Assembly (NCBI GenBank): GCA_041397765.1
Contig: JAWKWA010000008.1
Location: 94,726-158,725 of the forward strand
From: Hyphomicrobiaceae bacterium
GTDB taxonomy: Bacteria > Pseudomonadota > Alphaproteobacteria > Rhizobiales > Hyphomicrobiaceae
DNA: 64,000 bases
Direction of reading: 5' to 3'
Shown here in pieces: positions 1 to 24,322 of this stretch. The first letter of the stretch is position 1, and the number at the start of each line of letters is the position of its first letter. The notes beneath the pieces are model-generated. The model was not told the DNA's origin and ran no database searches. It worked only from the letters and a program-made list of their open reading frames with translations. The position numbers were made by a program, and so were the translations under genes.

Positions 1-116
1 GCGTCATTCCCCAGGAGGACATCGCCGAGCTGGCGCGCGCCGGCGTCGATCGCGTGTTCCTGTCGGGAACGCCCGTCTCCGACATCGTCGCCTATGTCCG
101 GGGCATCGAGCCATGA
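1..116 (+). CDS. 3' end (partial, runs off window) of a cobalamin-binding domain protein of the methylmalonyl-CoA mutase family
   Basis: Frame ending at TGA 114-116 reads ...VIPQEDIAELARAGVDRVFLSGTPVSDIVAYVRGIEP*, a typical C-terminus of the MCM B12-binding domain. Its stop overlaps the next ATG (ATGA). Confidence 0.5.
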   Translation, partial: VIPQEDIAELARAGVDRVFLSGTPVSDIVAYVRGIEP

Positions 117-1678
117 GCCAGGATGCGACGAGGACCCTCGCGCGCGGCTACGCCGATTCGCCGATGCGGGCGGCCGCCCGCCGCTTCGCCGACCGTCTGG
201 CGCTCGCCGATGCCGGCCGGACCTGGACCTTCGCCGCCTTCGACATTCTCGTCGACCGGCTGGCCGGTGGCCTCGCCGCCCGCCTGGCCGAGGGCGAGCG
301 GGTGGCCCTCTACATGCGCAACTCGCCGGAATACCTGCTTCTCTCGACCGCCATCGAGCGGGCCGGCCTCGTCCGTGTGCCCCTCAATGTCCGCTACACC
401 GCGCTCGAGGTCCGCAACCTGATCGCCGACTGCGGCGCCGCCGCCGTCTGCCATGATTTGCGCACCCTGCCGGCCCTTGGCGAGGCGCTGGCCGGGATTG
501 CCTCCGCCCCCTGGCATTTCAGCGTCGACAGCGAGGACGCGTGCGGCGGTCCCACCTATGGCGAGCTCGCCGCCGCCGCGCCCATCGACGTCGACCGCTC
601 ATCTGCCGATCTCTCCGCCCTCTCCTCCATCAACTACACCTCCGGCACCTCCGGCCGGCCCAAGGGCGTCATGCTGACCCGCGCCAACTGGCGTGCCGTC
701 ACCCGCAACATGATGCTCGACCGGCGCATCTCGGGCGACGACCGGCTCGGCCATATCGGACCGCTGACGCATGCCTCCGGCACCTATTTCCAGCCCTTCT
801 TCCTGCGCGGCGCCGCTTCCGTCGTCGTGACCGAGGGCACGGTCGAGGCACTCCTCGGCGCCATCGACCGCTTCGGCATCACCGGCTTCACCTGCGTGCC
901 CTCGCTGCTCACCCGCGTCGTCAATCATCCCGCCATCGACAGCCACGATCTCTCGAGCCTCGCCTGGATCGGCTACGGCGCCGAGCCCATTCCGCGCAAC
1001 ACGCTGGAGCGATCGCTGGCCCGCTTCGGCCCGGTGCTGACGCAGAACTACGGGCTGACCGAGGCGATGATGACCTGCGCCTTCCTGCCGCCCGCCGATC
1101 ATTTCACCGGCGATGGCGAGTTGCGCACCGGCTCGATCGGCCGCGCCTACTCCTTCGTCGACATCGTGCTGCGCGACGGCGAGGGACGGCCGGTTCCCGT
1201 CGGCGAGATCGGCGAAATCACCATCCGCGCCGAGCATGTCATGGCCGGCTACTGGCGCATGCCCGAGGAAACGGCAAAGGTGCTGCGCGAAGGCTGGCTG
1301 TGGTCGGGCGATCTGGCGCGCATGGATGCCGAGGGCTTCATCACGCTCGCCGGCCGCTCCAAGGACATGATCATCTCCGGCGGATTCAACATCTACCCCC
1401 AGGAGGTCGAAGCCTGCCTGACCGGCTGTCCGGGTGTGCGCGAGGCGGCCGTCGTCGGCATCCCCGACGAGGCCTTCGGCGAGCTGTGCGTCGCCTTCCT
1501 TGTCGCCGACGGCGCCGATGCCCCCGATCCGGAGGTCCTGGTCGCCTGGGCGAAGCCGCGCCTCGGCATCAAGACGCCGCGGCACTGGCGTTTCGTCGCC
1601 GATCTGCCGAAGAACTCCAACGGCAAGCTCGACAAGCCGGCGATCCGCCGCATGAGCGCGGAGATCGACTGGCGATGA
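113..1678 (+). CDS. AMP-dependent acyl-CoA synthetase/ligase
   Basis: 521 aa ORF with the AMP-binding signature YTSGTSGRPKGV and C-terminal ...GEIGEITIRAEHVMAGYW...NSNGKLDKP. ATG at 113. Confidence 0.9.
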   Translation: MSQDATRTLARGYADSPMRAAARRFADRLALADAGRTWTFAAFDILVDRLAGGLAARLAEGERVALYMRNSPEYLLLSTAIERAGLVRVPLNVRYTALEVRNLIADCGAAAVCHDLRTLPALGEALAGIASAPWHFSVDSEDACGGPTYGELAAAAPIDVDRSSADLSALSSINYTSGTSGRPKGVMLTRANWRAVTRNMMLDRRISGDDRLGHIGPLTHASGTYFQPFFLRGAASVVVTEGTVEALLGAIDRFGITGFTCVPSLLTRVVNHPAIDSHDLSSLAWIGYGAEPIPRNTLERSLARFGPVLTQNYGLTEAMMTCAFLPPADHFTGDGELRTGSIGRAYSFVDIVLRDGEGRPVPVGEIGEITIRAEHVMAGYWRMPEETAKVLREGWLWSGDLARMDAEGFITLAGRSKDMIISGGFNIYPQEVEACLTGCPGVREAAVVGIPDEAFGELCVAFLVADGADAPDPEVLVAWAKPRLGIKTPRHWRFVADLPKNSNGKLDKPAIRRMSAEIDWR

Positions 1679-2889
1679 GCGGCACGTCGCAGACGAGGGC
1701 ACGATCGGCCGATCCGCGCGACTGCGTGGTCGTCGCCTTTGCGCGCACGCCGTTCGGGCGCTTCGGCGGTGCGCTCTCGGCGCTCGATGTCGCGGCGCTC
1801 GGCCGCCTCGCCATCGACGAGGCCGTGGCGCGCGCCCGCATCGACGCCGAGGCCGTCGAGGCGCTCTATGCCGGCGTCGCGATGATCGGCGGCGCCATGC
1901 TGACGCCGGCTCGCCGCATGGTTCTCGCCTCCTCGCTGCCCGAACGGACGCCCTCCCTCGCCGTCGATCGCGCCTGCTGCTCGGGGTTGACGGCACTCGC
2001 CCTCGCCCGTCGGCAGATCCTCGCCGGCGAGGCCGATCTCGTCATCGCCGGCGGTGTGGAGGCCTTGAGCGCGACGCCGCGCCTCCTGCCGCGCGAGATG
2101 CGGATGCGCCCCGGCCCGGTCGCGGCCGACGATCCGCTGACCCTCCGCGCACCGTTCCTCGACAAGGCCATCGCCGCCTATACGGGCGAGGAGGCGCTAC
2201 GCAATGGCGTCACCCGCCGGATGCAGGACGAGTGGGCGCTCGAAAGCCATGGTCGCTACTTCGAAGGCGAGGCCGCCGGCCATTTCGCCGCCGAGCGCTT
2301 TGCCGTCGACATGCCGCAGGCTCGGCTCGCCACCGACGAGCAGCCCCGCCGCGACACCTCGCTCGAAAAGCTCGCCGCACTTGCGACCATCTATGGCGGA
2401 CCGACCGTCACCGCCGGCAATGCACCGGGCCTCAGCGACGGTGCCGCCTTTCTCGTGCTCGCATCGCGGGCATTCGCCACCGCTCACGGGCTTGCCATTC
2501 GCGCCACTCTCCGCGCTCATGCCGAGGTGGCGGGCGGCCCGACCTCGGGCACATCGACGCCGGCAGAGGCCATCCGTGCCGTCATCGCGCGCGCTGGTCT
2601 CGGCATCGCCGACATGCGCCTTGTCGAGATCAACGAGGCCTTCGCCGCGACGCCCCTCGTCAGCACCCTGCGGCTCGCCGACGGCGATCCGGGCGAGGCC
2701 CGCTCGCTGCGCGCGCGCACCAACCTCCACGGCGGCGCCGTCGCCATCGGCCATCCGCTCGGCGCCAGCGGTGCGCGCCTCGTCATGACCCTCGCGGCAT
2801 CGCTGGAGCGCCTCGGCGGCGGCGCGGGCGTGGCGGCCATTTGCGGCGGCTTCGGCCAGGGCGACGCCATGATCGTCGAGGTGGCATGA
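1675..2889 (+). CDS. acetyl-CoA C-acyltransferase (thiolase family)
   Basis: ATG 1675 overlaps the upstream stop (ATGA). Protein MSGTSQTRA...VVAFARTPFGRFGG...DRACCSG...NLHGGAVAIGHPLGASGARL has thiolase active-site motifs. The start is taken inside the longer track ORF 541..2889. Confidence 0.85.
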   Translation: MSGTSQTRARSADPRDCVVVAFARTPFGRFGGALSALDVAALGRLAIDEAVARARIDAEAVEALYAGVAMIGGAMLTPARRMVLASSLPERTPSLAVDRACCSGLTALALARRQILAGEADLVIAGGVEALSATPRLLPREMRMRPGPVAADDPLTLRAPFLDKAIAAYTGEEALRNGVTRRMQDEWALESHGRYFEGEAAGHFAAERFAVDMPQARLATDEQPRRDTSLEKLAALATIYGGPTVTAGNAPGLSDGAAFLVLASRAFATAHGLAIRATLRAHAEVAGGPTSGTSTPAEAIRAVIARAGLGIADMRLVEINEAFAATPLVSTLRLADGDPGEARSLRARTNLHGGAVAIGHPLGASGARLVMTLAASLERLGGGAGVAAICGGFGQGDAMIVEVA

Positions 2890-4634
2890 TGGCAGCAGGG
2901 AAGACGACGCCGCCAGGCGATGGGCGCGATGCCCGCCAGGATGGGCCCGCCGGCGCCCGTCCCGCCGATGGCGATCCGATCACCGAGGCGCATCGCGCTT
3001 GGCGCGACGGTGCCTACCGCGCCGCTCTCGGCGAGGTCGGAGAGCGCCGTGACTTCGTCACCGACATTGGCATCGCGGTCGAGCCGCTCTACACCCCGCA
3101 CAGCCTCGCCGACCGCCGGTTCGACTATCTGAAGGATGTCGGCTTTCCCGGCGCCTTTCCCTTCACGCGCGGCGACGATCCGGCGATGTATCGCCGCGCC
3201 CCCTTCATCGTCTCGGCCTATACCGGCTTCGGCGAGGCGCCCGCCTGCAATCGCCGACTGAAACGTCTCGTCGAGCTCGGCGTCGAGCAGCTTCTCCTCG
3301 CCTTCGACCTGCCGACCCAGTGCGGCTATGACAGCGACGACGTGATGGCGGCCGGCGAGGTCGGGCGCGTCGGCGTCGCCATCGACACACTCGCCGACAT
3401 GGAGGATCTTTTCGAGGATCTGCCGCTCGACACGGTGAAGCGCGTCGGCTGCCTCGGCAATGCCATCGGCCCGATCGTCACCGCCATGTTCGTCGCCCTC
3501 GCCGAGAAGCAGGGACTGGCGCCCGCCGACTTCGTGCTCAATCTGCAGAACGATCCCTTGAAGGAATATCTGGCGCGCGGCACGCAGATCCTGCCGGTCG
3601 CTCCCTCCCTCAAGCTCGCCGCCGATCCGGTCTCCTGGTGCGTCACCCATGCCCCGCATTGGTCGCCGCTCACCGTCTGCTACAATCATCTGAATGCCGG
3701 CGGTGCCGGCTCCAGCATGGGCGCGGCGATCGCCCTCGCCAATGCCCGCGCCTATCTCGACGATCTGCTCGCCCGCGGTCATTCGATCGACGAGGTGGCC
3801 CCGCTCCTGCACATGTTCGCCGACGAGCGGCACGATTTCTTCGTGTCGGTCGCCAATATGCGGGCGCTTCGCAAGGTCTGGGCGCATCTGATGCGCGATG
3901 CCTATGGTGCCACCACCGACCGCGCCATGGCCCTCGCCACCACCGTCTACGGTCATGGCCAGGAAGCGCTCGCCGAGCCTATAAACAATCTGGTGCGCAT
4001 CGCCTTCGGCACGCTCGCCTATGTCATGGGCGGCGCCTCATATGTTTACATCGCCTCCTATGACGAGGCCGTCGGCATCCCGTCCGAGGAGACGGTGCGC
4101 GCCGCCGTGCGCACGCAACAGATCATCGCCCACGAGCATGGCTTCACCGATACGATCGACCCGCTCGGCGGCTCCTGGCTCGTCGAGAGCCTGACGATCG
4201 ACATCGAGCGGCAGTTGCGGGACGGCCTCTCGGCCATCGAAGCGATGGGAGGCGCTCTTGCCATCATCGACAACGGCTATGGCCGCAAGCTCATGTCGGA
4301 AGGGGCGGGGCGTCGCCAGAAGCGCATCGATACGGGCGCGCGTCCCTGGGTGACGGTCAATCTTCATCGTCAGGAGCCGAACGTGCCGAACACCGCCTTC
4401 CGCATCGACCCCGCGACCGGCGACCGGCAGATCGCACGCCTCGCTGCCGTCAAGGCGCGCCGCGACGGCGCGCGCGTCGCCGCCGCGCTTGCCGAGATCG
4501 ATCGGGCCTGTGCCGAAGGCCGCAACGTCATGGAGCCGACACTCGAGGCGGTGCGCGCCTATGCGAGCATCGGCGAGATCGTCGATGTCTGGCGCCGCCG
4601 CTACGGCGAGTTCCAGCCTTCGACCGCATTCTGA
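2886..4634 (+). CDS. acyl-CoA mutase catalytic (large) subunit, MCM family, without a fused B12 domain
   Basis: ATG 2886 overlaps the thiolase stop. Protein ...FPGAFPFTRGDDPAMYRRAPFIVSAYTGFG...LAFDLPTQCGYDSDDVMAAGEVGRVGVAIDTLADMEDLF... is homologous to the MutB/IcmA/HcmA TIM-barrel domain. At about 582 aa there is no C-terminal cobalamin domain. Confidence 0.8.
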   Translation: MMAAGKTTPPGDGRDARQDGPAGARPADGDPITEAHRAWRDGAYRAALGEVGERRDFVTDIGIAVEPLYTPHSLADRRFDYLKDVGFPGAFPFTRGDDPAMYRRAPFIVSAYTGFGEAPACNRRLKRLVELGVEQLLLAFDLPTQCGYDSDDVMAAGEVGRVGVAIDTLADMEDLFEDLPLDTVKRVGCLGNAIGPIVTAMFVALAEKQGLAPADFVLNLQNDPLKEYLARGTQILPVAPSLKLAADPVSWCVTHAPHWSPLTVCYNHLNAGGAGSSMGAAIALANARAYLDDLLARGHSIDEVAPLLHMFADERHDFFVSVANMRALRKVWAHLMRDAYGATTDRAMALATTVYGHGQEALAEPINNLVRIAFGTLAYVMGGASYVYIASYDEAVGIPSEETVRAAVRTQQIIAHEHGFTDTIDPLGGSWLVESLTIDIERQLRDGLSAIEAMGGALAIIDNGYGRKLMSEGAGRRQKRIDTGARPWVTVNLHRQEPNVPNTAFRIDPATGDRQIARLAAVKARRDGARVAAALAEIDRACAEGRNVMEPTLEAVRAYASIGEIVDVWRRRYGEFQPSTAF

Positions 4635-4651
4635 GCAGGGAGCATCGGGCA

Positions 4652-6412
4652 ATGAGCACCAAGAGCGCCGGGCCGGATGACGCCGGGGCGAAGCGGCCGG
4701 GAACCGTCGATCCCTTCACCATGGTGGTGCTGCGTCGCCGCATGGAGGCGATCATCCGCGAGATGGTCAATGCGCTCCTGAAGTCCGGCCGCTCCGGCGT
4801 GCTCAACACGGCGATGGACTTTTCCTGCTCCCTGACCGATGCGCGTTTCCAGTCGGTGAGCGTTGCACTCGGGCTGCCGGTGCATGTCGGCGCCATCGAC
4901 CTCATTCCGCGCAAGGTCGCCGAGAAGCATGGTTCGACCCTCGCCCCCGGCGATTGCTTCGCCAACAACAGCGGCTACCACGGCAACACGCATTGCGCCG
5001 ATTTCACGCTATGCGTGCCGGTGTTCTACGAGGGTCGCGTCGTTTTCTATACCATCGCCCGCGCGCATCTGGGCGACATGGGCTTTCCGATACCCTCCAC
5101 CTACAACCCGGCCGCCCGCGACGTCTATGAGGAAGGCCTGATGCTGCCCTGCATCCGCGTCCAGCGGGATGGCCGCGACATCGAGGACGTGATCGACATC
5201 CTGAAGGCGAACATCCGTGCGCCCGAGCAGTTCTATGGCGACTATCTCGCCTGTCTCGCCGCGGTGCGCACCGGCGAGAAGCGCCTGAAGGAGTTGTGCG
5301 CCCGCTTCGGCACCGATCTCGTCGAGCGCTTCATCGACGAGTATCAGGACTACGCCGAGCTGATGGCCAAGGATGCCATTTCGCGTCTCCCCAAGGGCCG
5401 CGTGACGCGATCGGTGCGCTACGATTCGGAGCTTGCGCAATATCCCGACGGCATTCCCGTGACGGCGACGCTCGATGTCGATCCTGACGCCGGCCGCGTC
5501 GTCATCGACCTGACGGAGAACATCGACAATCTGCCGCTTGGCATCAACATGACCGAGAGCACCGTGCTCGCCTGCTGCCGCATGGGCACGCTCAACGTGC
5601 TTGGTCCCGACGTGCCGCGCTCGGCCGGTGCATTCCGCCGCATCGAGGTGAGGATGCGCGACGGCTCGGCGATCGGCCGGCCGGTCTTTCCCGCCGCAAC
5701 CTCGGCCGCCACCACCAATCTCTGCCATCTGCTCGCCTCGCACATCCAGGCCCTCTATGCCGATCTCGTCGATGGTCTCGGCTCCGCCTACGGCTCCGTC
5801 GGCCTGCCGGGCTCCTGCCCCGTCGTCAGCGGCCGCGACCCGCGACGCGGCAATCGCCCCTTCGTCAACCAGATCATCATGGGCTACTGGGGCGGCCCGG
5901 CCGTCGCCGGTCACGACGGCTGGCTGACCTACGGCAGCGCCGCCTCGCAGGGCATTCTCTGGCAGTCGAGCGTCGAGATCGTCGAGCAGCAGCAGCCGAT
6001 CCTGATCGAGGAGCTGTCGATCCGGGAGGATTCGGGTGGCGCCGGCGCCAGCCAGGGCGGCCCGGGCTCGCGTGTCGTCTTCCGCCCGCGCTTCGGCCCC
6101 GTGCGTTTCGCGATCAACGCCGCCGCGCACGACAATCCGCCCGAAGGCATGCGCGGCGGTCTGCCGGGAGCGCCGACGCGCATCAGCCGCATCGCCGCCG
6201 ACGGCACCCGCACCGATCTCGGCATCACCATCGACGTCACGCTCGGTCCGGGCGAGCGGCTGCTGTCGGAAGCCTGCGGCGGCGGCGGCTATGGCACACC
6301 GGCGGAGCGCCCCGCCGATCGCATCGCCGCCGACATCGCCGATGGCGTCCTGACGCCCGCACATGCCGCCAAGGTCTATCCCCGGCAGGCCCGTGAGGGG
6401 AGCGGTCGCTGA
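4652..6412 (+). CDS. hydantoinase B/oxoprolinase family protein (HyuB-like, ATP-dependent amidohydrolase beta subunit)
   Basis: 586 aa. The N-terminus DPFTMVVLRRRMEAIIREMVNALLKSGRSGVLNTAMDFSCSL..GYHGNTHCADF is characteristic of Hydantoinase_B. RBS gggag upstream. Confidence 0.85.
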   Translation: MSTKSAGPDDAGAKRPGTVDPFTMVVLRRRMEAIIREMVNALLKSGRSGVLNTAMDFSCSLTDARFQSVSVALGLPVHVGAIDLIPRKVAEKHGSTLAPGDCFANNSGYHGNTHCADFTLCVPVFYEGRVVFYTIARAHLGDMGFPIPSTYNPAARDVYEEGLMLPCIRVQRDGRDIEDVIDILKANIRAPEQFYGDYLACLAAVRTGEKRLKELCARFGTDLVERFIDEYQDYAELMAKDAISRLPKGRVTRSVRYDSELAQYPDGIPVTATLDVDPDAGRVVIDLTENIDNLPLGINMTESTVLACCRMGTLNVLGPDVPRSAGAFRRIEVRMRDGSAIGRPVFPAATSAATTNLCHLLASHIQALYADLVDGLGSAYGSVGLPGSCPVVSGRDPRRGNRPFVNQIIMGYWGGPAVAGHDGWLTYGSAASQGILWQSSVEIVEQQQPILIEELSIREDSGGAGASQGGPGSRVVFRPRFGPVRFAINAAAHDNPPEGMRGGLPGAPTRISRIAADGTRTDLGITIDVTLGPGERLLSEACGGGGYGTPAERPADRIAADIADGVLTPAHAAKVYPRQAREGSGR

Positions 6413-8508
6413 TGCACGAGCGAGCGGACATTGCCATCGACGTCGGCGGCACCTTCACCGATCTGGTGCTGCGTCTCGCCTCCGGCGAGATCCGCGCCTA
6501 CAAGTCGCCGACGACCACCGGCCGCATCATCGACGGGGTCTTCGACGGCCTCGCCCAGATCGCCGAGGACCTTGGCATCCCGCGCGACCGGCTGATCGCA
6601 GGGCTTGGCCGTTTCGCCTTCGGCACCACCGCCGCGACCAATGCCATTCTCGAGGGCAAGGCGGCGGCGACCGGCCTCATCGTCACCAGGGGATTCCGCG
6701 AGACCCTCCTGGTGCGCGAGGGCGGCAAGGCCGACACCTACAACATGTATCTCGACTATCCCGCGCCCTACATTCCCCGCGCGCTGACCCTCGAGGTCGA
6801 CGAGCGCGTCAACGCCGAGGGCGGCATCGAGCGGCCGCTCGAAGAGCAGAGCGTCGTCGCCGCCATCGACGCCCTGCGCGCCGCCGGCGTCGAGGCCGTC
6901 GCCGTCTCGCTCCTGTGGTCGATCGCCAATCCGCTCCACGAGGAGCGCGTCGGCGCGATCTTTGCCCGGCACTGGCCGGAGATTCCCGTCAGCCTCGGCC
7001 ATCGCGTCAATCCTTGCGTGCGCGAGTATCGCCGCACCTCGGCCGTCGCGCTCGATGCCTCGCTGAAGCCGATCGTCGCGCGCAGCGTCGCCGATCTCGA
7101 GGAGCGGCTGGCAGCGAGCGGCTTTTGTGGCACGTTGACCTATGTCACCTCGTCCGGCGGCCAGACCTCTGCCGAAGACATCATGGCGCGCCCCGTTCAT
7201 CTCTGCTTTTCGGGTCCCGCCGCCGCACCAGAGGCGAGCCGCAGGTTTGCCGCGCTCGAGAACATCGACGGTGGCAACATCATCACCGTCGACATGGGCG
7301 GCACCAGCTTCGATGTCAGCATCGTCACCGACTGGCAGATTCCGCTCCACCGCGAGGGCAGCATCGCCGGTCACATCTTCGGCGTGCCCTCGGTCGAGAT
7401 CCACACCATCGGCGCCGGCGGTGGCTCGCTCGCGCGTGTCGACCGCGGCGGCTTCATCCACACCGGCCCCGAGAGTGCAGGCTCCCTCCCCGGTCCCGCC
7501 TGCTATGGCCGTGGCGGCACGCGCGCGACGGTGACGGACGCCAATCTGGTGCTCGGCATGCTCGATCCCGAGCGCTTCGCCGCCGGCCGCATGACGCTCG
7601 ACGCGGCCGCGGCGCGTGACGCGGTCGAGCGGGATGTCGCCCGTCCGCTCGGTCTGGTGCTTGGCGAGGCCGCCAGCCTCGTCGCGGTGAGTTGCGAGCA
7701 GAACATGGTCGGCGCCATCGCCGATCTGACGGTCAAGCGTGGCATCGACCCGCGCGACTATCTGATGGTCGCTGGTGGCGCCGCCGCCGCGCTCCACGCC
7801 GTCGCCATCGCCCGCGAGCTCGGGATCCGCCGCATCCTCGTGCCGCGCTTCGCCGGCGTCATGAGCGCCTTCGGCATCCTGACGGGCGATGTCGCCTTCA
7901 CCTTCGGACGCGCGTTGTTCGCCTCCTCGGCGACTTTCGACCATGCGGCCGTCAATGGCGTGCTCGAGGCCCTCGAGGCCGAGGGTAACGACTATCTCGA
8001 CCGCATGGGCTTTGCCGATCCGGCCTTGCGCAGTCTCGTCTTCTCGGCGGAAGCGCGCTATGCGGGCCAGGTCTGGCAGCTCACCGTGCCTCTGCCCTCG
8101 CCTCGCATCCCCGACGCCACCGCGCTTGCCGCACTCGTCGAGGCATTCCACCGTCAGCACGAGCTGCAATACGCGGTAAGGAGCGCGCTCGACGCCGTCG
8201 AGTTCACCGAATGGAGCCTGAAGGCCGTCGGCCGCCTGCCCGACGTGTCGCTCGCCGAGCGGAACATGGAGCGCGGCGCCGTCACGCCGTCGCGCCGGCG
8301 CATGGCCCGCTTTCCGTCATCGCCCGAGCCGATCGACACGCCGGTCTACGAGATCGCGGACCTGCCGGTCGGCGTCACGATCGCCGGGCCGGCGCTCGTC
8401 GAGGATCGCCTGACCACCATCGTCGTCCCGCCCGGATCGCGCGCGTCGGTGACCCGCTACGGAAACATCCTGATCGACATCGCCAGCCCCGAGGGAGGCG
8501 TCACATGA
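6412..8508 (+). CDS. hydantoinase A/oxoprolinase family protein (HyuA-like alpha subunit)
   Basis: 698 aa. N-terminal IAIDVGGTFTDLV sugar-kinase-like fold and ...TVDMGGTSFDVS... The ATG overlaps the HyuB stop by 1 nt. Confidence 0.85.
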   Translation: MHERADIAIDVGGTFTDLVLRLASGEIRAYKSPTTTGRIIDGVFDGLAQIAEDLGIPRDRLIAGLGRFAFGTTAATNAILEGKAAATGLIVTRGFRETLLVREGGKADTYNMYLDYPAPYIPRALTLEVDERVNAEGGIERPLEEQSVVAAIDALRAAGVEAVAVSLLWSIANPLHEERVGAIFARHWPEIPVSLGHRVNPCVREYRRTSAVALDASLKPIVARSVADLEERLAASGFCGTLTYVTSSGGQTSAEDIMARPVHLCFSGPAAAPEASRRFAALENIDGGNIITVDMGGTSFDVSIVTDWQIPLHREGSIAGHIFGVPSVEIHTIGAGGGSLARVDRGGFIHTGPESAGSLPGPACYGRGGTRATVTDANLVLGMLDPERFAAGRMTLDAAAARDAVERDVARPLGLVLGEAASLVAVSCEQNMVGAIADLTVKRGIDPRDYLMVAGGAAAALHAVAIARELGIRRILVPRFAGVMSAFGILTGDVAFTFGRALFASSATFDHAAVNGVLEALEAEGNDYLDRMGFADPALRSLVFSAEARYAGQVWQLTVPLPSPRIPDATALAALVEAFHRQHELQYAVRSALDAVEFTEWSLKAVGRLPDVSLAERNMERGAVTPSRRRMARFPSSPEPIDTPVYEIADLPVGVTIAGPALVEDRLTTIVVPPGSRASVTRYGNILIDIASPEGGVT

Positions 8509-9434
8509 GCTTGAGCGAGCCGCTCGTCTATCTGAACGGCGAGTTCGTCCCCGAGAGTGCCGCCAAGGTCAGCGTCTATGACCGCTGCTTCCTCTACGGC
8601 GACGGGGTGTTCGAGGGCATCGCCGTCTGGGAGCGCGCGCCGTTCCGCCTCGGGTCGCATCTCGACCGTCTGTCGCGCGGCCTGCGCTATCTGATGATCG
8701 ACGAGCCGCTCGACCATGACGGCTGGCGCGAGGTGATCCGCGAGCTGATCCGCCTGAACGACATGCAGGACGGCTATCTCCGCCTCCAGCTCAGCCGCGG
8801 CGAGGGCATGAGCTCGATCAAGTGGGAGAAGCGGCTGCTGCGCAAGGCGTCGCCCAATGTGACGATCATCCCGGTCGCCGGCTTTGCGCGCTACTACGCC
8901 GGCCTGCTCGACGAGAAGAACGAGCGCGGCCTGAAGGCGATCACCGTTCCGCGTCCGCGCATCGCCTCGCACGCCGTGCCGACCGGCATGAAGCACTGCA
9001 ACTACCTGGGCAGCGTGCTCGGTGCGATCGACGTGACCGGACGCGGCGCCGACATCGGCATTTCCGTCGATGCCGACGGCTTCGTCGCCGAGGGCATCGC
9101 CTACAACGTGTTCATCGTCGTCAACGGCCGCATCCTGACGCCACCGACGACGCGCGACATCCTGCCCGGCATCACCCGCGACGTCATCGTCGAGCTCGCC
9201 GAGGCGAACGGCATACCCGTCGCCGAGCGTGATTTCGACGCCTATACCATGGCCTCCGCCGACGAGGCGTTCATTTCATCGACGCTCGAGCTTGCCGTGC
9301 CCGTCGTCTCTCTCGATGGCCGTACCATCGGCGAAGGCCGTCCAGGACCCGTCGCGCGGCGCATGGGCGCGCTCCTGAAGGACGCCATGACGCGCGAGGC
9401 GGCCGACTTCCATGCAACCCGCCAGGCGGGCTGA
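8505..9434 (+). CDS. PLP fold-type IV aminotransferase (branched-chain / D-amino-acid / (R)-amine transaminase class)
   Basis: ATG 8505 overlaps the HyuA stop. Protein MSLSEPLVYLNGEFVPESAAKVSVYDRCFLYGDGVFEGI...NYL...GITRDVI... is typical of class IV aminotransferases. Confidence 0.8.
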   Translation: MSLSEPLVYLNGEFVPESAAKVSVYDRCFLYGDGVFEGIAVWERAPFRLGSHLDRLSRGLRYLMIDEPLDHDGWREVIRELIRLNDMQDGYLRLQLSRGEGMSSIKWEKRLLRKASPNVTIIPVAGFARYYAGLLDEKNERGLKAITVPRPRIASHAVPTGMKHCNYLGSVLGAIDVTGRGADIGISVDADGFVAEGIAYNVFIVVNGRILTPPTTRDILPGITRDVIVELAEANGIPVAERDFDAYTMASADEAFISSTLELAVPVVSLDGRTIGEGRPGPVARRMGALLKDAMTREAADFHATRQAG

Positions 9435-9452
9435 GCGGCCAGCCGCGACACG

Positions 9453-10235
9453 ATGAGGAGGACTTCCATGGAGAACTTTTCCGACCTGACCGGCAAGACC
9501 ATCCTCGTCACGGGCGGCTCGCGTGGTATCGGCGAGGGCATCGTCCGCGGCCTCGTCAGGCAGGGCGCCCATGTCGTGCTCAACTATTCGACGAGCGGCA
9601 AGAGCGCCGAGGCGATCGCCGACGAGCTCGGCCGCGATCGTTGTCTTCCCGTCCATGCCGATCTGGCGAAGCTCGAGGATGTCGAGCGCTTGTGGAAGGA
9701 CGCCGTCGCCTGGCGCGGCCGCATCGACGTTCTCGTCAACAACGCCGCCGTCAGGAAGCCGATTGCCATCGACGCGCCGGCCGAGGCCTGGGACGAGCAT
9801 TGGATGACCGCCTTCCGCATCAATCTGCTGGCGACCGCGCATCTGTGTCGCCTCGCCATCGGCCATTATCGCCAGACGGGTGGCGGCTCGATCATCGGCA
9901 TCACGGCACGCATCGCGGTGCGCGGCGATCGCACCAACTTCTTCCACGATGGTGCCATGAAGGGCGGCATGAACTCGCTGCTCCGCGGCATCGCGCGTTT
10001 CCATGCCAAGGAGAACATCGACACCTATCTCGTTTGCGTCGGCGTGGTCGAGACCGAGCAGGCGCGCGACATGGTCGACATCTACGGCCGGGACGAGATG
10101 CTGCGCGAGATCCCGGCCGGCCGCTTCGGCACGCCCGCCGAGGTCGCCGATACGGTGGTGCTGTGCGCCGGCGGACGCATGAAATACGCGACCGGCTGCA
10201 CCATCGATCTCGTCGGCGCGTCCTTTCTGCATTGA
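9453..10235 (+). CDS. short-chain dehydrogenase/reductase (SDR)
   Basis: Rossmann motif TGGSRGIGEGI with NNAA, and a YxxxK region. RBS gaggagga 8 nt upstream. Confidence 0.85.
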   Translation: MRRTSMENFSDLTGKTILVTGGSRGIGEGIVRGLVRQGAHVVLNYSTSGKSAEAIADELGRDRCLPVHADLAKLEDVERLWKDAVAWRGRIDVLVNNAAVRKPIAIDAPAEAWDEHWMTAFRINLLATAHLCRLAIGHYRQTGGGSIIGITARIAVRGDRTNFFHDGAMKGGMNSLLRGIARFHAKENIDTYLVCVGVVETEQARDMVDIYGRDEMLREIPAGRFGTPAEVADTVVLCAGGRMKYATGCTIDLVGASFLH

Positions 10236-10267
10236 GCTGGCCGCGATTCTTGAGGGAGAACGGGAAC

Positions 10268-12526
10268 GTGACCAGTATCGGCAGATCGATCAAGCGCTTC
10301 GAGGACGAGCGACTGCTGCGCGGCGAGGGCCGGTTCGTCGAGTCGCTGATCCCCGGCGGCGCGCTCGAGGCGATGTTTCTCCGCTCGCCCTTCGCTCATG
10401 CCCGCATCGCACGGATCGACTGCACCGCCGCGCGCGCCATGCCCGGCGTGGTCGGGGTGCTGACGGGCCGCGATCTCGTCGACGCCGGTGCCGGGCCGCT
10501 GAAATGCCGCCGCACCATCCCGAGCATCGACGGCACCCCGTTCCACGAGCCGGTCCGCCATGCGCTCGCCCTCGAGACTGTGCGCTTCGTCGGCGAGGCG
10601 GTGGCCCTTGTCATCGCCGAAAGTCGCGCGGCGGCACTCGATGCCCTCGACATGATCGAGGTGGACTACGACCCGCTGCCGCTCGTGGTCGATCCGCTGA
10701 AATCGACCGAGATCGCCTTCACATGGGCGCAAGGCGACCGTGACGCCACCGACGCCGTCTTCCGCACGGCGCCGCTCGTCACCAGCTTTTCCGGCACCAG
10801 CTCGCGCATGGCCGCCGTGCCGATCGAGCCGCGCTCGGCCATCGCCGAATACGATCCGGTGGCGGCACGCTATCGCCTGGTGACGCAGAGCCAGGGTGTG
10901 CACCTGTTGCGCGCCGCCTACGCGTCCTCGCTCGGCATCGCTCCCGAGGCACTGCATCTGCAGACATTCGATGTCGGCGGCAGCTTCGGCATGAAGCTGA
11001 TCCCGCATCCAGAGCCGATCGCGCTGCTGACGGCTGCAAGGCTCGTCGGCCGCACCCTGGCCTGGGTCTCGACGCGCTCGGAGGCCTTCCTTTCGGACAA
11101 CTACGCGCGCGACCAGACCGCGACCGCCGAGCTGGCGATGGATCGCGACGGCACCTTCCTTGCACTCAGGATCTCCAGCACCGGCAACATGGGAGCCTAT
11201 GCCTCCTCATCGGCCCCGGGCGTGATGGCGATCCACTTCGCCCGCACCGTCGGTCATGTCTACCGCATCCCCGTCCATCACGTTCATGTCACCTCGGTCT
11301 ACACCAATATGACGCCGACGGATGTCTTCCGTGGCGCCGGAAAGCCGGAATCGACGGTGCTGGTCGAGCGTCTCATCGACCGTGCCGCGTGCAGGCACGG
11401 CTTCGATCGCCTCGATCTCAGACGCCGCAATCTCGTGACGCCCGCCGACATGCCGCGCCGCACGCTGTCGGGCCACATGATCGACGGCGGCGACTTCCCG
11501 CGGACGCTCGATCATGCGCTGGTGAGGGCAGATTGGCGCGGCTTCGAGGCGAGGCGCGCCGAGACGCTGTCACGCGGCCGGCTGCGCGGCATCGGCGTCG
11601 GTCTCTACATGCACGTCACCAGCCACCCCGTCGTCGAGGAATGTCGCGTCCGCCTCCTCGGCGATGGCACATTCGAGGCGACGATGGGTGCGCAAGGGAT
11701 CGGCCAGGGGCACGAGACCACATTTTCCCAGCTACTCGGCGACACGCTGAAGGTCGAGCCGGACGCCATCCGCATCGTCCAGGGCGACAGCGCCGTGCTT
11801 CCCCCCGTCGGCGCCGCGACCGGTGGCTCGGGCTCGATCCAGGTTACGGGCCTCACACTTCTGAAGGCGGCACGCCTTCTCATCGATCGGCTGCGACCCG
11901 AGGCCGCCGAGATGCTCGAGGCCTCGCCCGCCGATCTCGAGCATGCGACCGGCGGTTTCCGCATCAAGGGCACCGATCGCGCCGTCGGCTTCGCAGCCAT
12001 CGCCGGCCGCATGGACGACGACGCGCGCGAGGACTGCGCGGGCGATGCGCATTTCGAGGGCGATGCCGCCACCTGCCCGAACGGTGCCTACATCGCCGAG
12101 GTCGAGGTCGATCCGGCGACCGGCGAGGTCGAGATCCTGCGCTTCTCCGGCGCCGACGATGTCGGCCGGCGGCTCAACCCGATGATCGTCGATGGCCAGC
12201 TCCATGGCGGCATCGCCCAGGGTATCGGCCAGGCCATGCTCGAGCGCGTCGTCTACGACGAGGAGAGCGGACAGCTCCTCTCCGGCAGCCTCATGGACTA
12301 CGCGCTGCCGCTCGCCAGCGACTTGCCGAGCTTCGAGCTGGTCGCAGCCGATTGCCCCTCCTCGCAGAACGAGCTCGGCATGAAGGGCGCCGGCGAGTGC
12401 GGCACGATCGGCGCGCCCGGCGCGCTTCTCAACGCCATAGCCGACGCGATCGGCACCGACGAGTTCGACATGCCGGCGACGACCGAGCGGGTCTGGCGCG
12501 CGATACGCCTGAAACGGGGAGACTGA
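10268..12526 (+). CDS. molybdopterin-dependent hydroxylase large subunit (xanthine dehydrogenase/CoxL family, form II-like) without adjacent Fe-S or FAD subunits
   Basis: GTG start 10268 within track ORF 9641..12526. N-terminus SIGRSIKRFEDERLLRGEGRFVESL is a classic XDH/CoxL large-subunit start. VFRGAGKPE motif present. About 752 aa. Confidence 0.8.
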   Translation: MTSIGRSIKRFEDERLLRGEGRFVESLIPGGALEAMFLRSPFAHARIARIDCTAARAMPGVVGVLTGRDLVDAGAGPLKCRRTIPSIDGTPFHEPVRHALALETVRFVGEAVALVIAESRAAALDALDMIEVDYDPLPLVVDPLKSTEIAFTWAQGDRDATDAVFRTAPLVTSFSGTSSRMAAVPIEPRSAIAEYDPVAARYRLVTQSQGVHLLRAAYASSLGIAPEALHLQTFDVGGSFGMKLIPHPEPIALLTAARLVGRTLAWVSTRSEAFLSDNYARDQTATAELAMDRDGTFLALRISSTGNMGAYASSSAPGVMAIHFARTVGHVYRIPVHHVHVTSVYTNMTPTDVFRGAGKPESTVLVERLIDRAACRHGFDRLDLRRRNLVTPADMPRRTLSGHMIDGGDFPRTLDHALVRADWRGFEARRAETLSRGRLRGIGVGLYMHVTSHPVVEECRVRLLGDGTFEATMGAQGIGQGHETTFSQLLGDTLKVEPDAIRIVQGDSAVLPPVGAATGGSGSIQVTGLTLLKAARLLIDRLRPEAAEMLEASPADLEHATGGFRIKGTDRAVGFAAIAGRMDDDAREDCAGDAHFEGDAATCPNGAYIAEVEVDPATGEVEILRFSGADDVGRRLNPMIVDGQLHGGIAQGIGQAMLERVVYDEESGQLLSGSLMDYALPLASDLPSFELVAADCPSSQNELGMKGAGECGTIGAPGALLNAIADAIGTDEFDMPATTERVWRAIRLKRGD

Positions 12527-12528
12527 GC

Positions 12529-14892
12529 ATGGCCGACGAGCTTCCGCGCAACGCCGATGTGGTCGTGATCGGTGGTGGCATTGCCGGGTTGATGGCGCTC
12601 TACAATCTGGCGCGGCTCGGTGTCACCGACACGGTACTGGTCGAGCGACGCCAGCTCGCCTGCGGCACGACATGGCATTCCGTCGGCAGCGTCGGCCAGG
12701 TGCGCGGCTCGCGCCTCTTGACCGTGCTGTCCGGTGCGACAGCCGCGCTCTTGCCCGAGATCGAGCGCGAGACCGGCATGTCGACCGGCTACAAGCGCTA
12801 CGGCTCGATCGGCCTCGCATTGACCGAGGAGCGGCTGGAGGAGTTCCGCCGCACCGTTTCGTCGGCCTCGGCATGGGGGCACGAGGCGGCGATCCTCTCG
12901 CCCGGCGAGATCAAGGAGCGCTATCCCGCCGTCGAAGTCGACGACGTCAAGGGCGGTCTCTTTCTTCCAGGCGACGGCCGCACCAATCCGATCGATACGG
13001 TCCAGGCGCTCGCCAGGGCCTGCCGCCAGCGCGGCGCGCGCATCTTCGAGGAGACGCGCGTCGACGACATCGTGGTGGAGGATGGGCTCGTTCGGGGTGT
13101 TCGCACCTCGCGGGGCGACATCCTGGCCGAAAAGGTGCTGCTCTGTGCCGGCATGTGGAGCCGCGACATCGCCGAGCGCATCGGCGTCACCATTCCGCTG
13201 CTCGCCGCCGAGCATTTCTACGCCGTCACCGAGCCGATCGAGGGGCTCGCGCGCGACACGCCCATGGTACGTGTTCCCGACGAGCGCACCTACTACAAGG
13301 AGGATGCCGGCAAGCTGCTGTTCGGTTGCCTCGAGGAGGTCGCCAAGCCCTGGGGCATGGCCGGCATTCCCGAGAGCTTCTGCTTCGATAGCCTGCCGCC
13401 CGACCTCGATCATTTCGCACCGATCCTCGAGACTGCCATGGAACGCATGCCGCTCCTGAAGGAGGTTGGCATCAAGCTGTTCTTCAACGGTCCCGAGAGC
13501 TTCACGCCGGACGGCAACTTCCACATCGGCGAGACCGCCGAGGTGCGCAATCTCTTCGTCTCGTGCGGTTTCAATACCATCGGCGTCATGGCCTCGGGCG
13601 GCATCGGCCGCATGGCCGCCGAGCTGATCGTCGACGGCCGCGCCAGCGTCGATATGACCGGCACCGATGTTCGGCGCGCCGCGCGCTTCGAGACGAACGT
13701 CTCCTACCTCACCGAGCGGATCACCGAGGGCCTCGGCAAGCTCTACGGCCTGCAATGTCCCGACCAGACCTATACCTCCGCGCGCGGCGTCCGGCGCAGC
13801 CCGCTGCACGCCGATCACATTGCCGCCGGTGCGGTGATGGAGCATGTCGCCGGTTTCGAGCGGCCGGCCCTGTTCGCCCCGGCCGGGGCCGCCGCCCTCC
13901 ACGTGCCGACCTATTTCCGCCCGGCCTCGCACGACTGGGTGGCGGCTGAACAGCCCGCCGCACGCGAGAGGCCGCCGCCGTCTTCGACCAGTCGGCCCTC
14001 GCGAAGCTGACGCTGGCCGGCCGCGATGCCGCCGCTGCCCTGGCTGAAATCGTGACCCGCATGCCGGAGCACGGCGCGCCGTCCGTTCGCAGCCTGATCC
14101 TCGATGGCGCCGGTTGTCGAGGCGATCGTCCAGGTCGTCCGCATTCCTGGCCGAATACCCTTCGTCATCGGCGCCCCCGGTGACGAGCGCCGGCTCCTCG
14201 CGCTTCTGTCGCGCCGTCTGCCGGAGGGGCTGCACGCCGTCGTTCTCGACGCCACCGCCGGTTATTGCCTCCTCGACATCTTCGGTCCCGACCGCTCCGA
14301 TGCCTTGCGGCGCGCCGGTCGCCGGCCCCGTGCGGGTGATGCGGACATGGCACCGCAGCTCGACCTTGGCCTCGGCCTGACGCGCGCCGTCGAGGGCGGC
14401 GAGCATGGCCTCGACGTCACGCGCCTGATCGTCGCCTCCGACATGGCCGCGCACATCTACGAGGCCGTGACGGCGGCCGCGGTCCGCCCGATCGGCAGCC
14501 ATGCCTTCCATGCGCTCCGTCTCGAGGCAGGCCGTCCCGCCTGGGGCTCGGAGATCGACCAGACGACCATGCCGGCCGACGCCGGGCTCTCCGAGGCCGC
14601 CGGCCTCAACCGCGCCGCCGATGCGGTGCCCGCGCTCTGCCGCATCGTGCTCGAGCGCGCCGACGAGCGCCTGATCGGTCGCGAGCCGATCCGCCGCGAC
14701 GGCGAGGTCATTGGCTCGGTGGTCTCCGGCGCCTTCGGCCATGGGATCGGCCGGCCCGTCGGCTTCGCCTTCGTCGCATCGGCCGCCGACCGGCCGCGTC
14801 CCGGCGCCGAGGACATCGCCGTCGATGTCGAGATCGCTGGCCGGCCGGGCCGTGCACGCCTCATGGCCCTGCCCGGCGAGGAGATGGCCTGA
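12529..14892 (+). pseudogene. dimethylglycine/sarcosine dehydrogenase-like FAD oxidoreductase fused to a GcvT folate-binding domain, interrupted by two compensating frame shifts (about 13967 and about 14100)
   Basis: Frame 1 from 12529 gives DVVVIGGGIAGL...HDWVAAEQPAARE. Frame 0 (13950-14100) gives AAAVFDQSALAKLTLAGRDAAAALAEIVTRMP...LILDGAG. Frame 1 again (14104-14892) gives VVEAIVQVVRIPGR...LRLEAGRP...GREPIRRDGEVIGSVVSG. All three pieces align colinearly to DMGDH (FAD domain then GcvT domain). The frame-1 reading hits TGA at 14008. Confidence 0.6.
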
Positions 14893-15070
14893 AGGCTGAA
14901 GGGAGGACTCCTCTCGCGCAAGACCTCGTCGTCCGATGTCGCGCCGGTGATGGACGCGACCACCCGTCGCTTTCGGACGGGCGCGAAGGCCCGAGGACGC
15001 GATATCGAGGTGCTGACGGCGCCAGTGCCGACGCCGCCACGCCCCCCGCCCGCGGTGACAGGGACCGACC

Positions 15071-15553
15071 ATGACCGAGCAGCCGCAGCGACCTTCGAGA
15101 TTTGCAGGGATCTCCAACCGGCGCCGTGCCGTCTATGCCTTTCTCGCATCCATCCTGATCGGCCCGCCCATTGGCGGCATCTCTGTGATGCTCGGGCTCG
15201 CCCTGGCGTCCCTCGTCTCCGGCGATGCCAATTCCGGCGAGAGCGCCCTCGGCTTTCTCGCCGCGATCCCTGTCGTCGCCATCTTCTCCTACATCGCCGG
15301 CGGCCTTCAAGCGTTGGTCTGCGGCCTCATTCTCGCCATCCCGGTCGCCCGCACGGGCCATGTCGGGCTTGGCTTGACCGCCGGCGTCGCCGGCTTCGTC
15401 GGCATGTTGCGTGGCGGCGCCGTCTTGTTCGCCGGCGAGACCATCGTCCCGGCCGGGTTGCTCTTCGTCGCGCCCGCTCTGGTATCGGCCATCGGCTGCC
15501 GCGCTTTCCTGCTCTGGCTCGGCATCCTGCGGCGCCAGCCCCGGCGGGAGTGA
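15071..15553 (+). CDS. hypothetical small integral membrane protein (4 predicted TM helices)
   Basis: 160 aa ORF with hydrophobic stretches (ILIGPPIGGISVMLGLALASLV..., AAIPVVAIFSYIAGGLQALVCGLILAI...). Weak RBS aggga. No recognisable family. Confidence 0.4.
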   Translation: MTEQPQRPSRFAGISNRRRAVYAFLASILIGPPIGGISVMLGLALASLVSGDANSGESALGFLAAIPVVAIFSYIAGGLQALVCGLILAIPVARTGHVGLGLTAGVAGFVGMLRGGAVLFAGETIVPAGLLFVAPALVSAIGCRAFLLWLGILRRQPRRE

Positions 15554-15634
15554 CGGCAGCCGGGCGGGTGGCAGCGACCGGCCAAATCAGCTAGACAGGG
15601 CGGGAACAAATCCGAAACGCTGCCGGGGCCGCGC

Positions 15635-16681: not shown

Positions 16682-16703
16682 GGCGGCCGGCGCCGCCCAT
16701 CGT

Positions 16704-17010
16704 TCAAGGGGCGAGCCAGATCTCGACCTCTGTGCCGTTGGCCCTCAGGCGTCCCGTCTTCATGAAGCCGTGGCGCAGATAGAACTGCTCGGGACCATGC
16801 GCGCCGGGATTGCCGTCATGCCCGCGAAGGCGGGCACCCGGACCCAGCCGATCATGCGCGGCGACAAGGGCCTTCTGGATTCCCGCCTCCGCGGGAACGA
16901 CGGAGTGGCGGAGGTGAGCGGCAGAAGCTTCACTCGCCATCACCCGGCATCGTCCCGGGGTCAACCGCTCGGCGTCCCCTCGCGATCGTCCCAACCCGGC
17001 ATCGGACCGG
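16704..17010. repeat. cluster of REP-type hairpins between convergent ruvB and lepA, overlying a probable GNAT gene remnant
   Basis: Hairpins atgcccgc-gaag-gcgggcac (about 16817-16840) and ttcccgc-ctcc-gcgggaa (about 16880-16898), plus direct repeats acccggcatcg x2. The minus-strand ORF 16704..16994 ends ...FYLRHGFMKTGRLRANGTEVEIWLAP (GNAT-like C-terminus), but its upstream part is repeat-derived (VVPAEAGIQ...LRGHDGN). Confidence 0.5.
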
Positions 17011-17040
17011 ACGACAGCCGCAGCATTTCCCGGCCACCCC

Positions 17041-18855: not shown

Positions 18856-18956
18856 GGCGCGGACTTCTAGCATTGCCCCATGCGCCGAGAAAGAGGCGTC
18901 GGAGACAAGGACGCGCCAATCGGCAGGCGTGCGCCCGCGGGCGGTCGGGCTGGGGC

Positions 18957-19700: not shown

Positions 19701-19799
19701 AGATGGTTGAAGGCGGCGGCGAGCTGACGCCACAGGCAGGCTGCGCGGTGCTGAGGACGGATGCGACAGGGCGAGGACGGCGTCGGCCGGGCCGGTCGT

Positions 19800-24109: not shown

Positions 24110-24146
24110 TACCGCCTCGCGAAACCTCTGACCTTCGCGAGGCGGT

Positions 24147-24247: not shown

Positions 24248-24322
24248 CCGCACCGTCCGGCTCCGCGCGGCGCCCGGCGATGCTGCGGAACCGATTCCAG
24301 CCAGGTCGGACAGCCTGCTGGC

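Follow-up and report, generated by a model that had tools for sequence, protein, structure and literature searches.

The window analyzed here, a 64,000-nucleotide stretch of contig JAWKWA010000008.1 from a Hyphomicrobiaceae bacterium (GC content ~69%), carries at 2886..4634 on the + strand a gene for the large, catalytic subunit of an acyl-CoA mutase. We consider it probable (roughly 0.78) that its product is part of a two-subunit adenosylcobalamin (AdoCbl)-dependent acyl-CoA mutase that acts in the middle of a ligase-mutase-thiolase module, within an operon that degrades an N-heterocycle or lactam. Judged by sequence comparison, the protein is a catalytic subunit of the methylmalonyl-CoA mutase (MCM) family and belongs to a deep, separate clade distinct from MCM, 2-hydroxyisobutyryl-CoA mutase (HCM) and isobutyryl-CoA mutase (ICM). 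Within this well-known enzyme family the clade forms a genuine, conserved and clearly separate branch, and searches of the full-text literature and of curated libraries gave no function for it. Family membership, subunit pairing, synteny and motif pattern are observations; the order of the steps and the substrate are proposals.

The open reading frame (ORF) of the mutase begins with an ATG at 2886 and stops at 4632-4634, giving a TIM-barrel protein of 582 aa that was assigned with Pfam, NCBIfam, the PDB and a tree. Residues 59-574 match positions 2-512 of the 512 in the Pfam profile PF01642 (MM_CoA_mutase; E = 1.4e-142), such that the full-length (beta/alpha)8 substrate-binding domain of the AdoCbl-dependent acyl-CoA mutase superfamily is present, and a Pfam scan of the 582 residues found no B12-binding domain. 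A sequence-only reading of this DNA had described just such an MCM-family core with no fused cobalamin domain. The only NCBIfam model above its cutoff is TIGR00641 for the acyl-CoA mutase N-terminal domain (457 bits, cutoff 304), the MCM equivalog NF006944 scoring 389 bits where 876 are needed and the IcmF equivalog NF045497 scoring 169 bits where 1500 are needed. In the PDB the best solved relatives are HcmA (4r3u, E = 2.9e-102) followed by human MUT; over 557 well-aligned columns, identity is 36% between the mutase and HcmA, 34% between the mutase and human MUT, and 41% between HcmA and human MUT. A neighbor-joining tree was built from 77 sequences, a set that includes MCM and HcmA but no reference sequence of ethylmalonyl-CoA mutase (ECM), ICM, pivalyl-CoA mutase (PCM) or IaaG, and in this tree the window clade falls outside a group that comprises MCM, HcmA and three further clades, likewise uncharacterised. 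The canonical MCMs with an RQY motif form a distinct clade in both the alignment and the tree. NCBI labels the identical protein only as a 'methylmalonyl-CoA mutase family protein'.

The active site of the mutase combines four retained residues with extensive replacement elsewhere. Residues are numbered here as in Propionibacterium shermanii MutB, and their roles in MCM and HCM are those of the structural literature. Tyr89 and Arg207, the carboxylate clamp of MCM, are both present, as is the thioester-activating pair of Gln197 and His244, which is invariant in the clade. Tyr89 is kept throughout the clade in an SAY rather than an RQY context, with FIVSAYTGFG of the mutase aligning with WTIRQYAGFS of human MUT, and this agrees with the earlier identification of the substrate tyrosine; Gln197 and Arg207 are kept in NLQNDPLKEYLARGTQ as compared with TIQNDILKEFMVRNTY, where LARG aligns with VRN. 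Of the three combinations that had been put forward for scoring specificity – Tyr89/Arg207, Phe/Gln and Ile/Asp – it is thus the first that is found, with Gln197 and His244 alongside it. In contrast, the other MCM active-site positions examined (Tyr243, Arg87/Gln88, Gln330 and Glu370) do not hold their MCM residues, and their replacements are invariant in the clade: Tyr243 has become Asn (VC[Y/V]NH), Arg87 and Gln88 have become Ser and Ala, His328 and Gln330 have become Thr and Tyr (TVYGHGQE), and Glu370 has become Gly (FGTLAY), while LHTN of MutB corresponds to VY[I/L]A. Among the positions that we take to contact CoA in MCM (Tyr75, Arg82, Thr85, Arg87, Ser114, Thr195, Arg283 and Ser285), the first three are variable or hydrophobic in the clade, Ser114 is Leu, Thr195 is Asn, and Arg283 and Ser285 are Leu and His (VAPLxHMF). 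The resulting signature of SAY, NLQNDPLKEYxARGTQ, VCxNH, VAPLxHMF, TVYGHGQE and FGTLAYxLGGASYVY is invariant over ~45 proteobacterial sequences and is largely common to 12 actinobacterial or Firmicutes ones.

The invariant replacements at Tyr243, Arg87, Gln330 and Glu370 therefore point to purifying selection on a different site. The remodelling in the clade goes well past the differences among characterised members, since HcmA retains nearly all of the residues at the presumed CoA-contact positions; the binding sites of the known acyl-CoA mutases have been reviewed as highly alike, with most contacts being to CoA (PMC2847961). Two stretches downstream of the tyrosine had been quoted as strongly divergent in the sequence-only reading, and although divergence of the active site is upheld, the second of these stretches (FADERHDFFVSVANMRALRKVWAHLM) aligns well and is only moderately divergent, and CYNHLNAGGA of the mutase aligns with SGYHMQEAGA of human MUT. 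That reading had also left the substrate specificity open.

MCM itself (MutB or human MUT; 1req, 2xij) resembles the mutase in fold, in domain and in its Tyr89, Gln197, Arg207 and His244, and relatives of the mutase likewise encode MeaB; it differs in being only 34% identical, in its fused B12-binding domain and in its gene context. One could therefore ask if the clade represents ordinary but fast-evolving MCMs of propionate or succinate metabolism whose neighbors are incidental, as the 'methylmalonyl-CoA mutase (family protein)' label given to all members by NCBI and JGI would imply, and as the presence of the carboxylate-binding pair would allow. We regard this as very improbable, given the shortfall against NF006944, the invariance of the replacements at Tyr243, Arg87, Gln330 and Glu370, the conserved synteny with ligase and thiolase genes, and the separate clade formed by the RQY-type MCMs. 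A canonical MCM, which would have refuted the sequence-only reading, is contradicted by both score and phylogeny.

HcmAB of Aquincola tertiaricarbonis (4r3u) is similar to the window enzyme in having split large and small subunits, a dedicated acyl-CoA ligase, a MeaB-type G-protein and a catabolic role. However, HcmA keeps MCM-like channel residues (YPTMY..R..WTMRQ, SVSFT, FAPRL) that the window clade replaces, and the hcm cluster has a GntR regulator and no thiolase, where the window clade has a thiolase and LysR or AsnC regulators. The determinants of HCM specificity are reportedly Ile90, Asp117 and Gln208, as Kurteva-Yaneva et al. are said to have described in 2015; 4r3u has Ile, Asp and Gln at these positions and the mutase has Tyr, Ala and Arg. 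The hydrophobic residue plus Gln of the ICM type at Tyr89/Arg207, which we take to be the signature of PCM also, is lacking, Tyr and Arg being kept. Assignments to MCM, HCM and ICM/IcmF were rejected on the equivalog scores and specificity residues. A looser relationship to HCM can be imagined in which the mutase acts on a tertiary 2-hydroxy- or 2-amino-2-methylacyl-CoA and the 3-hydroxy- or 3-aminoacyl-CoA product is oxidized by the short-chain dehydrogenase/reductase (SDR) or aminotransferase encoded downstream, each of which would give a 3-oxo group ready for thiolysis. HcmA is the best solved relative, the SDR is FabG-like and resembles acetoacetyl-CoA reductases, and the layout of ligase, split mutase and G-protein recalls hcl-hcmAB-meaH (PMC7176365). 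Nonetheless, we think this unlikely: the HCM determinants are replaced, most core loci have neither the SDR nor the aminotransferase, and Arg207 would be unfavorably placed next to an ammonium group.

The partner of the catalytic subunit is encoded by the gene whose 3' end (38 codons) occupies 1..116 of the window on the + strand. Its terminal segment at 3..116 (VIPQEDIAELARAGVDRVFLSGTPVSDIVAYVRGIEP, followed by a stop codon) shows an ungapped alignment with the C-terminal end of the PF02310 small subunits (134-141 aa) found in relatives, with 51-62% identity to four proteobacterial examples (L083, L001, L084 and L033), and tblastn with the Aminobacter small subunit matches the window at 58% identity over residues 94-126. 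The small subunits of the relatives carry the DxHxxG motif as DGHDVG; in the window gene the corresponding region lies beyond the window edge, and the B12 partner with DxHxxG is recognized by way of the relatives' aligned subunits. The tail had been proposed to be B12-domain sequence, and this match bears that out. Two genes on the + strand lie between it and the mutase, as had also been noted: an AMP-forming acyl-CoA ligase of 521 aa at 113..1678 (PF00501 and PF13193) and a thiolase of 404 aa at 1675..2889, the true start being 1675 (Thiolase_N and Thiolase_C, with TIGR01930 above cutoff). The ligase reaches no NCBIfam equivalog cutoff, its best solved relatives are feruloyl- and fatty-acyl-CoA synthetases and MatB, and orthologues at 55-70% identity are found in the same module in at least 30 loci. 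The thiolase translation shows the catalytic motifs CxS, NEAF, GHP and CxG, and its best match in the PDB is the acetoacetyl-CoA thiolase 7cw4. The first four genes are joined by three 4-bp ATGA overlaps (113-116, 1675-1678 and 2886-2889), an arrangement that is typical of translationally coupled genes.

The clade is widely distributed. A protein search returned >120 clusters at 63-77% identity to the mutase, and a scan of species-representative genomes yielded 80 loci in at least three phyla. The clade is represented at 62-77% identity by ~45 of these loci in alpha- and betaproteobacteria (among them Aminobacter, Mesorhizobium, Nitratireductor, Rhodobacter, Dechloromonas and Alcaligenaceae, with Sphingomonas added by a separate protein look-up), and Actinomycetota and Firmicutes harbor a sister clade with 45-55% identity. 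Cultured carriers include Aminobacter carboxidus DSM 1086, Dechloromonas agitata DSM 13637, Nitratireductor soli ZZ-1 and Sphingomonas sp. YL-JM2C. Plasmid records gave nothing above 40% identity and so lend no support to an origin on a catabolic plasmid.

By tblastn, all members of a five-gene module – small subunit, ligase, thiolase, MeaB and large subunit – are present in 30 of the ~45 proteobacterial loci, co-occurring at 55-77% identity, and Pfam annotation confirms this independently. In order A a divergent LysR gene is followed by small-ligase-thiolase-MeaB-large, in order B the arrangement is large-small-ligase-thiolase-MeaB, and a third form, C, consists only of large-small-MeaB (11 loci). 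Order A without MeaB is seen in the window, in its closest relative (L003/L083, 76% identity) and in L042. The small-ligase-thiolase-large order, which had been singled out as unusual, is therefore not peculiar to this genome; it is conserved across the subclade, usually with MeaB before the large subunit, and is unlike hcl-hcmAB-meaH (PMC7176365). The locus L083, with its 76% identical mutase, served as a stand-in for the region upstream of the window, and no MeaB was seen there within 10 kb; a MeaB-type chaperone accompanies the mutase in most relatives, is missing from the window and L083, and is accessory rather than strictly defining. The conserved synteny is with the ligase and thiolase and not with propionyl-CoA carboxylase or epimerase, and the conserved core contains no dehydrogenase, hydratase or CoA-transferase. 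The association with ligase and thiolase suggests a breakdown pathway that is not yet described.

The mutase gene of the window lies in a single operon-like run of + strand genes that occupies the first 14.9 kb. It is followed at 4652..6412 (+) by a Hydantoinase_B-type lactamase subunit (PF02538, E = 6e-122; best NCBIfam match caprolactamase beta, below cutoff) and at 6412..8508 (+) by the Hydantoinase_A-type subunit of the same lactamase, identified with Pfam and the PDB. The best PDB matches of HydA are caprolactamase 6yra (2.9e-123; 416 bits) and N-methylhydantoinase 7hk5, with acetone carboxylase at 188 bits; because HydA is near caprolactamase and far from acetone carboxylase, a hydrolytic, ATP-dependent lactamase is the likelier identity of HydAB (compare PMC8453981). 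An acetone-type carboxylase, which would supply a beta-keto acid from a ketone to the ligase, thiolase and mutase, was considered and ranked low on the same scores; a gamma-subunit gene, at which no search was aimed, was not noticed beside hydAB. In the N-methylpyrrolidone pathway NmpAB is followed by an amine oxidase, and in the caprolactam pathway CapAB is followed by an aminotransferase; both resemble the window cluster in using an ATP-dependent HydA/HydB lactamase to open a lactam before the amine is removed. Unlike the window cluster, however, neither pathway requires a B12-dependent rearrangement, the end products being adipate or succinate.

Four further genes complete the run. A class IV aminotransferase resembling branched-chain aminotransferases (BCATs) at 8508..9434 (+; PF01063) has archaeal BCATs 5cm0 and 5e25 as its best PDB matches, reaches no NCBIfam cutoff and keeps the BCAT Tyr-x-Arg motif (GYLRL). 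The FabG-like SDR follows at 9453..10235 (+; Pfam, PDB, NCBIfam), and its resemblance to acetoacetyl-CoA reductases falls short of the equivalog cutoff. At 10232..12526 (+), profile searches identify the large subunit of a molybdenum hydroxylase of the xanthine dehydrogenase, carbon monoxide dehydrogenase (CODH) and aldehyde oxidoreductase family, nearest to the aldehyde-oxidoreductase or CODH-type members and likewise below the equivalog cutoff. Beside this large subunit there is neither a CoxS-like 2Fe-2S gene nor a CoxM-like FAD gene, in the window as in L083, whereas the actinobacterial clusters L056 and L057 do have a gene for the FAD subunit. The last gene, at 12523..14892 (+), is DMGDH- or sarcosine-dehydrogenase-like (DAO, FAO_M and GCV_T domains) and has two frame changes: near 13950-14110 the reading moves out of frame 0 into frame 2 and returns, all within ~200 bases. 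Its orthologue in L083 is uninterrupted over the part covered, 774 aa, where it runs off the locus end, and the split gene is either a pseudogene or an assembly or sequencing error of the metagenome-assembled genome. We take the cluster to end here, because the genes that come next encode RuvB, LepA, DnaJ and DnaK. Beyond it, at 21170..23139 (+), the N- and C-domains of a GMC oxidoreductase lie in overlapping ORFs (21170..22711 and 22528..23139), which suggests a second frameshifted gene.

The same accessory functions recur in relatives. In the window and in L083, genes for HydB, HydA, the aminotransferase, the SDR, the molybdenum-hydroxylase subunit and the DMGDH-like protein lie downstream of the mutase in the same orientation, separated by very short gaps, and in other order A genomes HydB, HydA and the aminotransferase are divergent across the LysR gene. 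In the actinobacterial sister clade (Actinomadura, Spongiactinospora, Conexibacteraceae) a single operon encodes this set of functions, in the order molybdenum-hydroxylase subunit, MeaB, HydA, HydB, a three-part amine dehydrogenase of the opine- or sarcosine-oxidase type, ligase, large subunit, small subunit, thiolase, class IV aminotransferase, SDR and molybdenum-hydroxylase FAD subunit. The thiolase of this sister clade is non-orthologous and of the SCP2 type (Thiolase_C_1), and SCP2-type thiolases act on 2-branched 3-oxoacyl-CoAs such as the substrates of SCPx and BbsAB. That these functions stayed together, or were brought together anew, in different phyla speaks for one pathway.

Other genes flanking the core vary from locus to locus: an SGL lactonase (L023, L034), Zn-dependent alcohol dehydrogenases (L030, L035, L028), SDR pairs (L041), an aldehyde dehydrogenase (L021), or an acyl-CoA dehydrogenase with a DUF35 protein and an SCP2-type thiolase (L033, L036). 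To judge from their families, the variable accessory genes, among them those for HydAB, the class IV aminotransferase, DAO-type amine dehydrogenases, SDRs, Zn-dependent alcohol dehydrogenases and the SGL lactonase, would all serve to open 5- or 6-membered rings or to make a carbonyl from a C-N or C-O bond. Transport genes near the core encode Bug/TctC binding proteins, which point to carboxylates, or PotD/F-type ABC systems, which point to amines, and the regulators are AsnC or LysR. We note that L083 has upstream of its divergent LysR gene (1..5838) a second LysR gene, an agmatinase/ureohydrolase-family gene, an NMT1-type ABC transporter and a GMC oxidoreductase, which hints that a guanidino or ureido compound is handled nearby. 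A conserved gene of ~850-930 aa adjoins the module in four Rhizobiales genomes (L021, 17135..19687 on the - strand; L023; L034; L050) and by eye resembles the large subunit of N,N-dimethylformamidase.

We propose the following scheme. The small subunit (~135 aa) would, by homology to MCM and HCM, hold the cofactor base-off/His-on through DxHxxG, and the large subunit would thread the acyl-CoA through its TIM barrel, where Co-C homolysis would start a radical 1,2-shift of the thioester group. His244 and Gln197 are predicted to act on the thioester carbonyl, with Tyr89 and Arg207 binding an oxygen function on the neighboring carbon. An acid would be converted by the ligase to an acyl-CoA, by the mutase to its isomer and by the thiolase to two smaller CoA esters. 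At the front end HydAB would open a lactam, with the DMGDH-like enzyme, aminotransferase, SDR and molybdenum hydroxylase removing or oxidizing amino and hydroxyl groups, such that the whole operon may degrade an N-heterocycle or lactam to central CoA esters.

Thiolases require a 3-oxoacyl-CoA, yet no dehydrogenase is part of the core; in the simplest chemistry, therefore, the mutase itself would yield the 3-oxoacyl-CoA. A linear 3-oxoacyl-CoA would be impossible from such a shift, whereas a 2-methyl-3-oxoacyl-CoA could arise from a 4-oxoacyl-CoA. Our leading but tentative suggestion for the substrate is therefore a 4-oxoacyl-CoA of the levulinyl-CoA type, interconverted with a 2-methyl-3-oxoacyl-CoA (levulinyl-CoA with 2-methylacetoacetyl-CoA, and homologues) that then undergoes thiolysis. 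This reaction would be the keto analogue of that between succinyl-CoA and methylmalonyl-CoA, with the Tyr89/Arg207/Gln197/His244 set binding a carbonyl group and not a free carboxylate, and the thiolase would cleave the product to an acyl-CoA and propionyl-CoA – acetyl-CoA and propionyl-CoA in the case of levulinate. Such a substrate accounts for the retained tetrad, the obligatory thiolase, the swap to an SCP2-type thiolase in Actinobacteria and the changing front-end enzymes. Several other candidates – 2-oxoglutarate, glutarate, aspartyl- or malyl-CoA, aminoisobutyrate and thymine-derived methylmalonate – were set aside, since none of them explains both the thiolase and the divergence of the active site.

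The main rival, which we hold just as tentatively, is that the enzyme is a substituted succinyl-CoA or alkylmalonyl-CoA mutase resembling ECM or IaaGH, in which the remodelled residues make room for the substituent and the thiolase acts after steps that are encoded elsewhere. Tyr89, Arg207, Gln197 and His244 are all kept, and a Tyr/Arg clamp is best fitted by such a substrate; moreover, the molybdenum enzyme, being nearest to aldehyde-oxidoreductase-type members, could turn an amino-acid-derived aldehyde into a second carboxylate, and Bug/TctC binding proteins often bind dicarboxylates. IaaGH is the proposed (2-aminophenyl)succinyl-/benzylmalonyl-CoA mutase of anaerobic indoleacetate degradation in Aromatoleum aromaticum, and Ebenau-Jehle et al. 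reportedly described in 2012 that its gene cluster also contains a molybdenum hydroxylase, a hydantoinase-like enzyme and a thiolase. At the level of enzyme classes, the iaa and window clusters share the pathway logic of a B12 mutase with a CoA ligase. The Aromatoleum cluster encodes the CoA ligase IaaB, the CoA-transferase IaaL, the B12 mutase IaaGH and the acyl-CoA dehydrogenase IaaF, and so combines two enzyme classes also seen here, CoA ligase and B12 mutase (PMC8360864). Yet it needs IaaL, IaaF and a hydratase/dehydrogenase, all of which are outside the module, and the window has instead the class IV aminotransferase, SDR and DMGDH-like enzyme. The core thus lacks an IaaF-like decarboxylating acyl-CoA dehydrogenase, an IaaL-like CoA-transferase and any hydratase/dehydrogenase to feed the thiolase, and a ccr/mcd-type context is likewise absent; the thiolase, whose gene is translationally coupled to that of the mutase, would be left with no substrate. 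ECM, furthermore, is a single fused polypeptide, in contrast to the split mutase found here.

Several observations weigh against the proposed module and its 4-oxoacyl-CoA substrate. The presumed CoA-contact positions are mostly replaced, and the CoA binding mode itself is therefore uncertain. In 14 loci, 11 of them of form C, the mutase and small subunit occur with no ligase or thiolase nearby, mostly with MeaB. No MeaB gene was found by tblastn in the 64-kb window, and an Rfam search of the whole window (1..64000) gave no family at gathering score and so no recognizable cobalamin riboswitch. The substrate is suggested by gene context and chemical logic; Arg207 beside Tyr89 is the classical carboxylate clamp, for which a dicarboxylyl-CoA would be at least as natural. 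The Tyr-x-Arg of BCATs binds an alpha-carboxylate, which makes an alpha-amino acid a better fit than a gamma-amine (4-aminopentanoate, for instance), and a widespread natural source of 5-substituted pyrrolidones or levulinate is not obvious.

That the MCM family should contain an unassigned clade is not in itself surprising, since at least three further uncharacterised mutase clades are present among the 80 loci. A separate uncharacterised clade (L061, L063-L069, L079 and L081, with match regions near 10001-11700) is characterized by W.MGQY(S/A)GF, QIRTTANAI and ISGYH, keeps Tyr89 and Arg207, is hosted by Peptococcaceae, Acidobacteria, Chloroflexota and Tectomicrobia, and often adjoins an enoyl-CoA hydratase and a thiolase 44-48% identical to that of the window. 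Mutases of two Dehalococcoidia (L073, L077) have VCSTQVRWGG where MCM has ISGYHMQEAG and so lack the otherwise universal His244, with Tyr89 kept in HDFYTGF. Another type (VELYAGF, VCGSHMKQAGA) is found at L062 in Thermodesulfobacteriota (8573..13748), where a PrpD-like gene, large subunit, small subunit and ligase lie beside 2-oxoacid dehydrogenase E1/E2 genes and two TRAP binding proteins. This HydAB-linked 'ELYAGF' clade was considered as an iaa-like system and rejected on account of its 2-oxoacid dehydrogenase, PrpD and TRAP neighbors; the locus looks like a different pathway.

To our knowledge, B12-dependent acyl-CoA mutases have fewer than ten established substrate specificities, and each new one (ECM, HCM, PCM) revealed a further pathway and gave metabolic engineering another tool. 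The compact ligase-mutase-thiolase module, the lactam and amine front end shared across phyla and the availability of cultured carriers make the substrate question directly testable. If the proposal is true, a 4-oxoacyl-CoA mutase would be a new reaction type for this group of enzymes, and it would provide a three-enzyme, B12-dependent route for gamma-keto acids and, via the various front ends, for gamma-lactams, gamma-lactones and gamma-amino and gamma-hydroxy acids, as an alternative to the phosphorylation-based Lva pathway. Identification of the substrate would also show how the family tolerates the replacement of most of the channel positions presumed to contact CoA.

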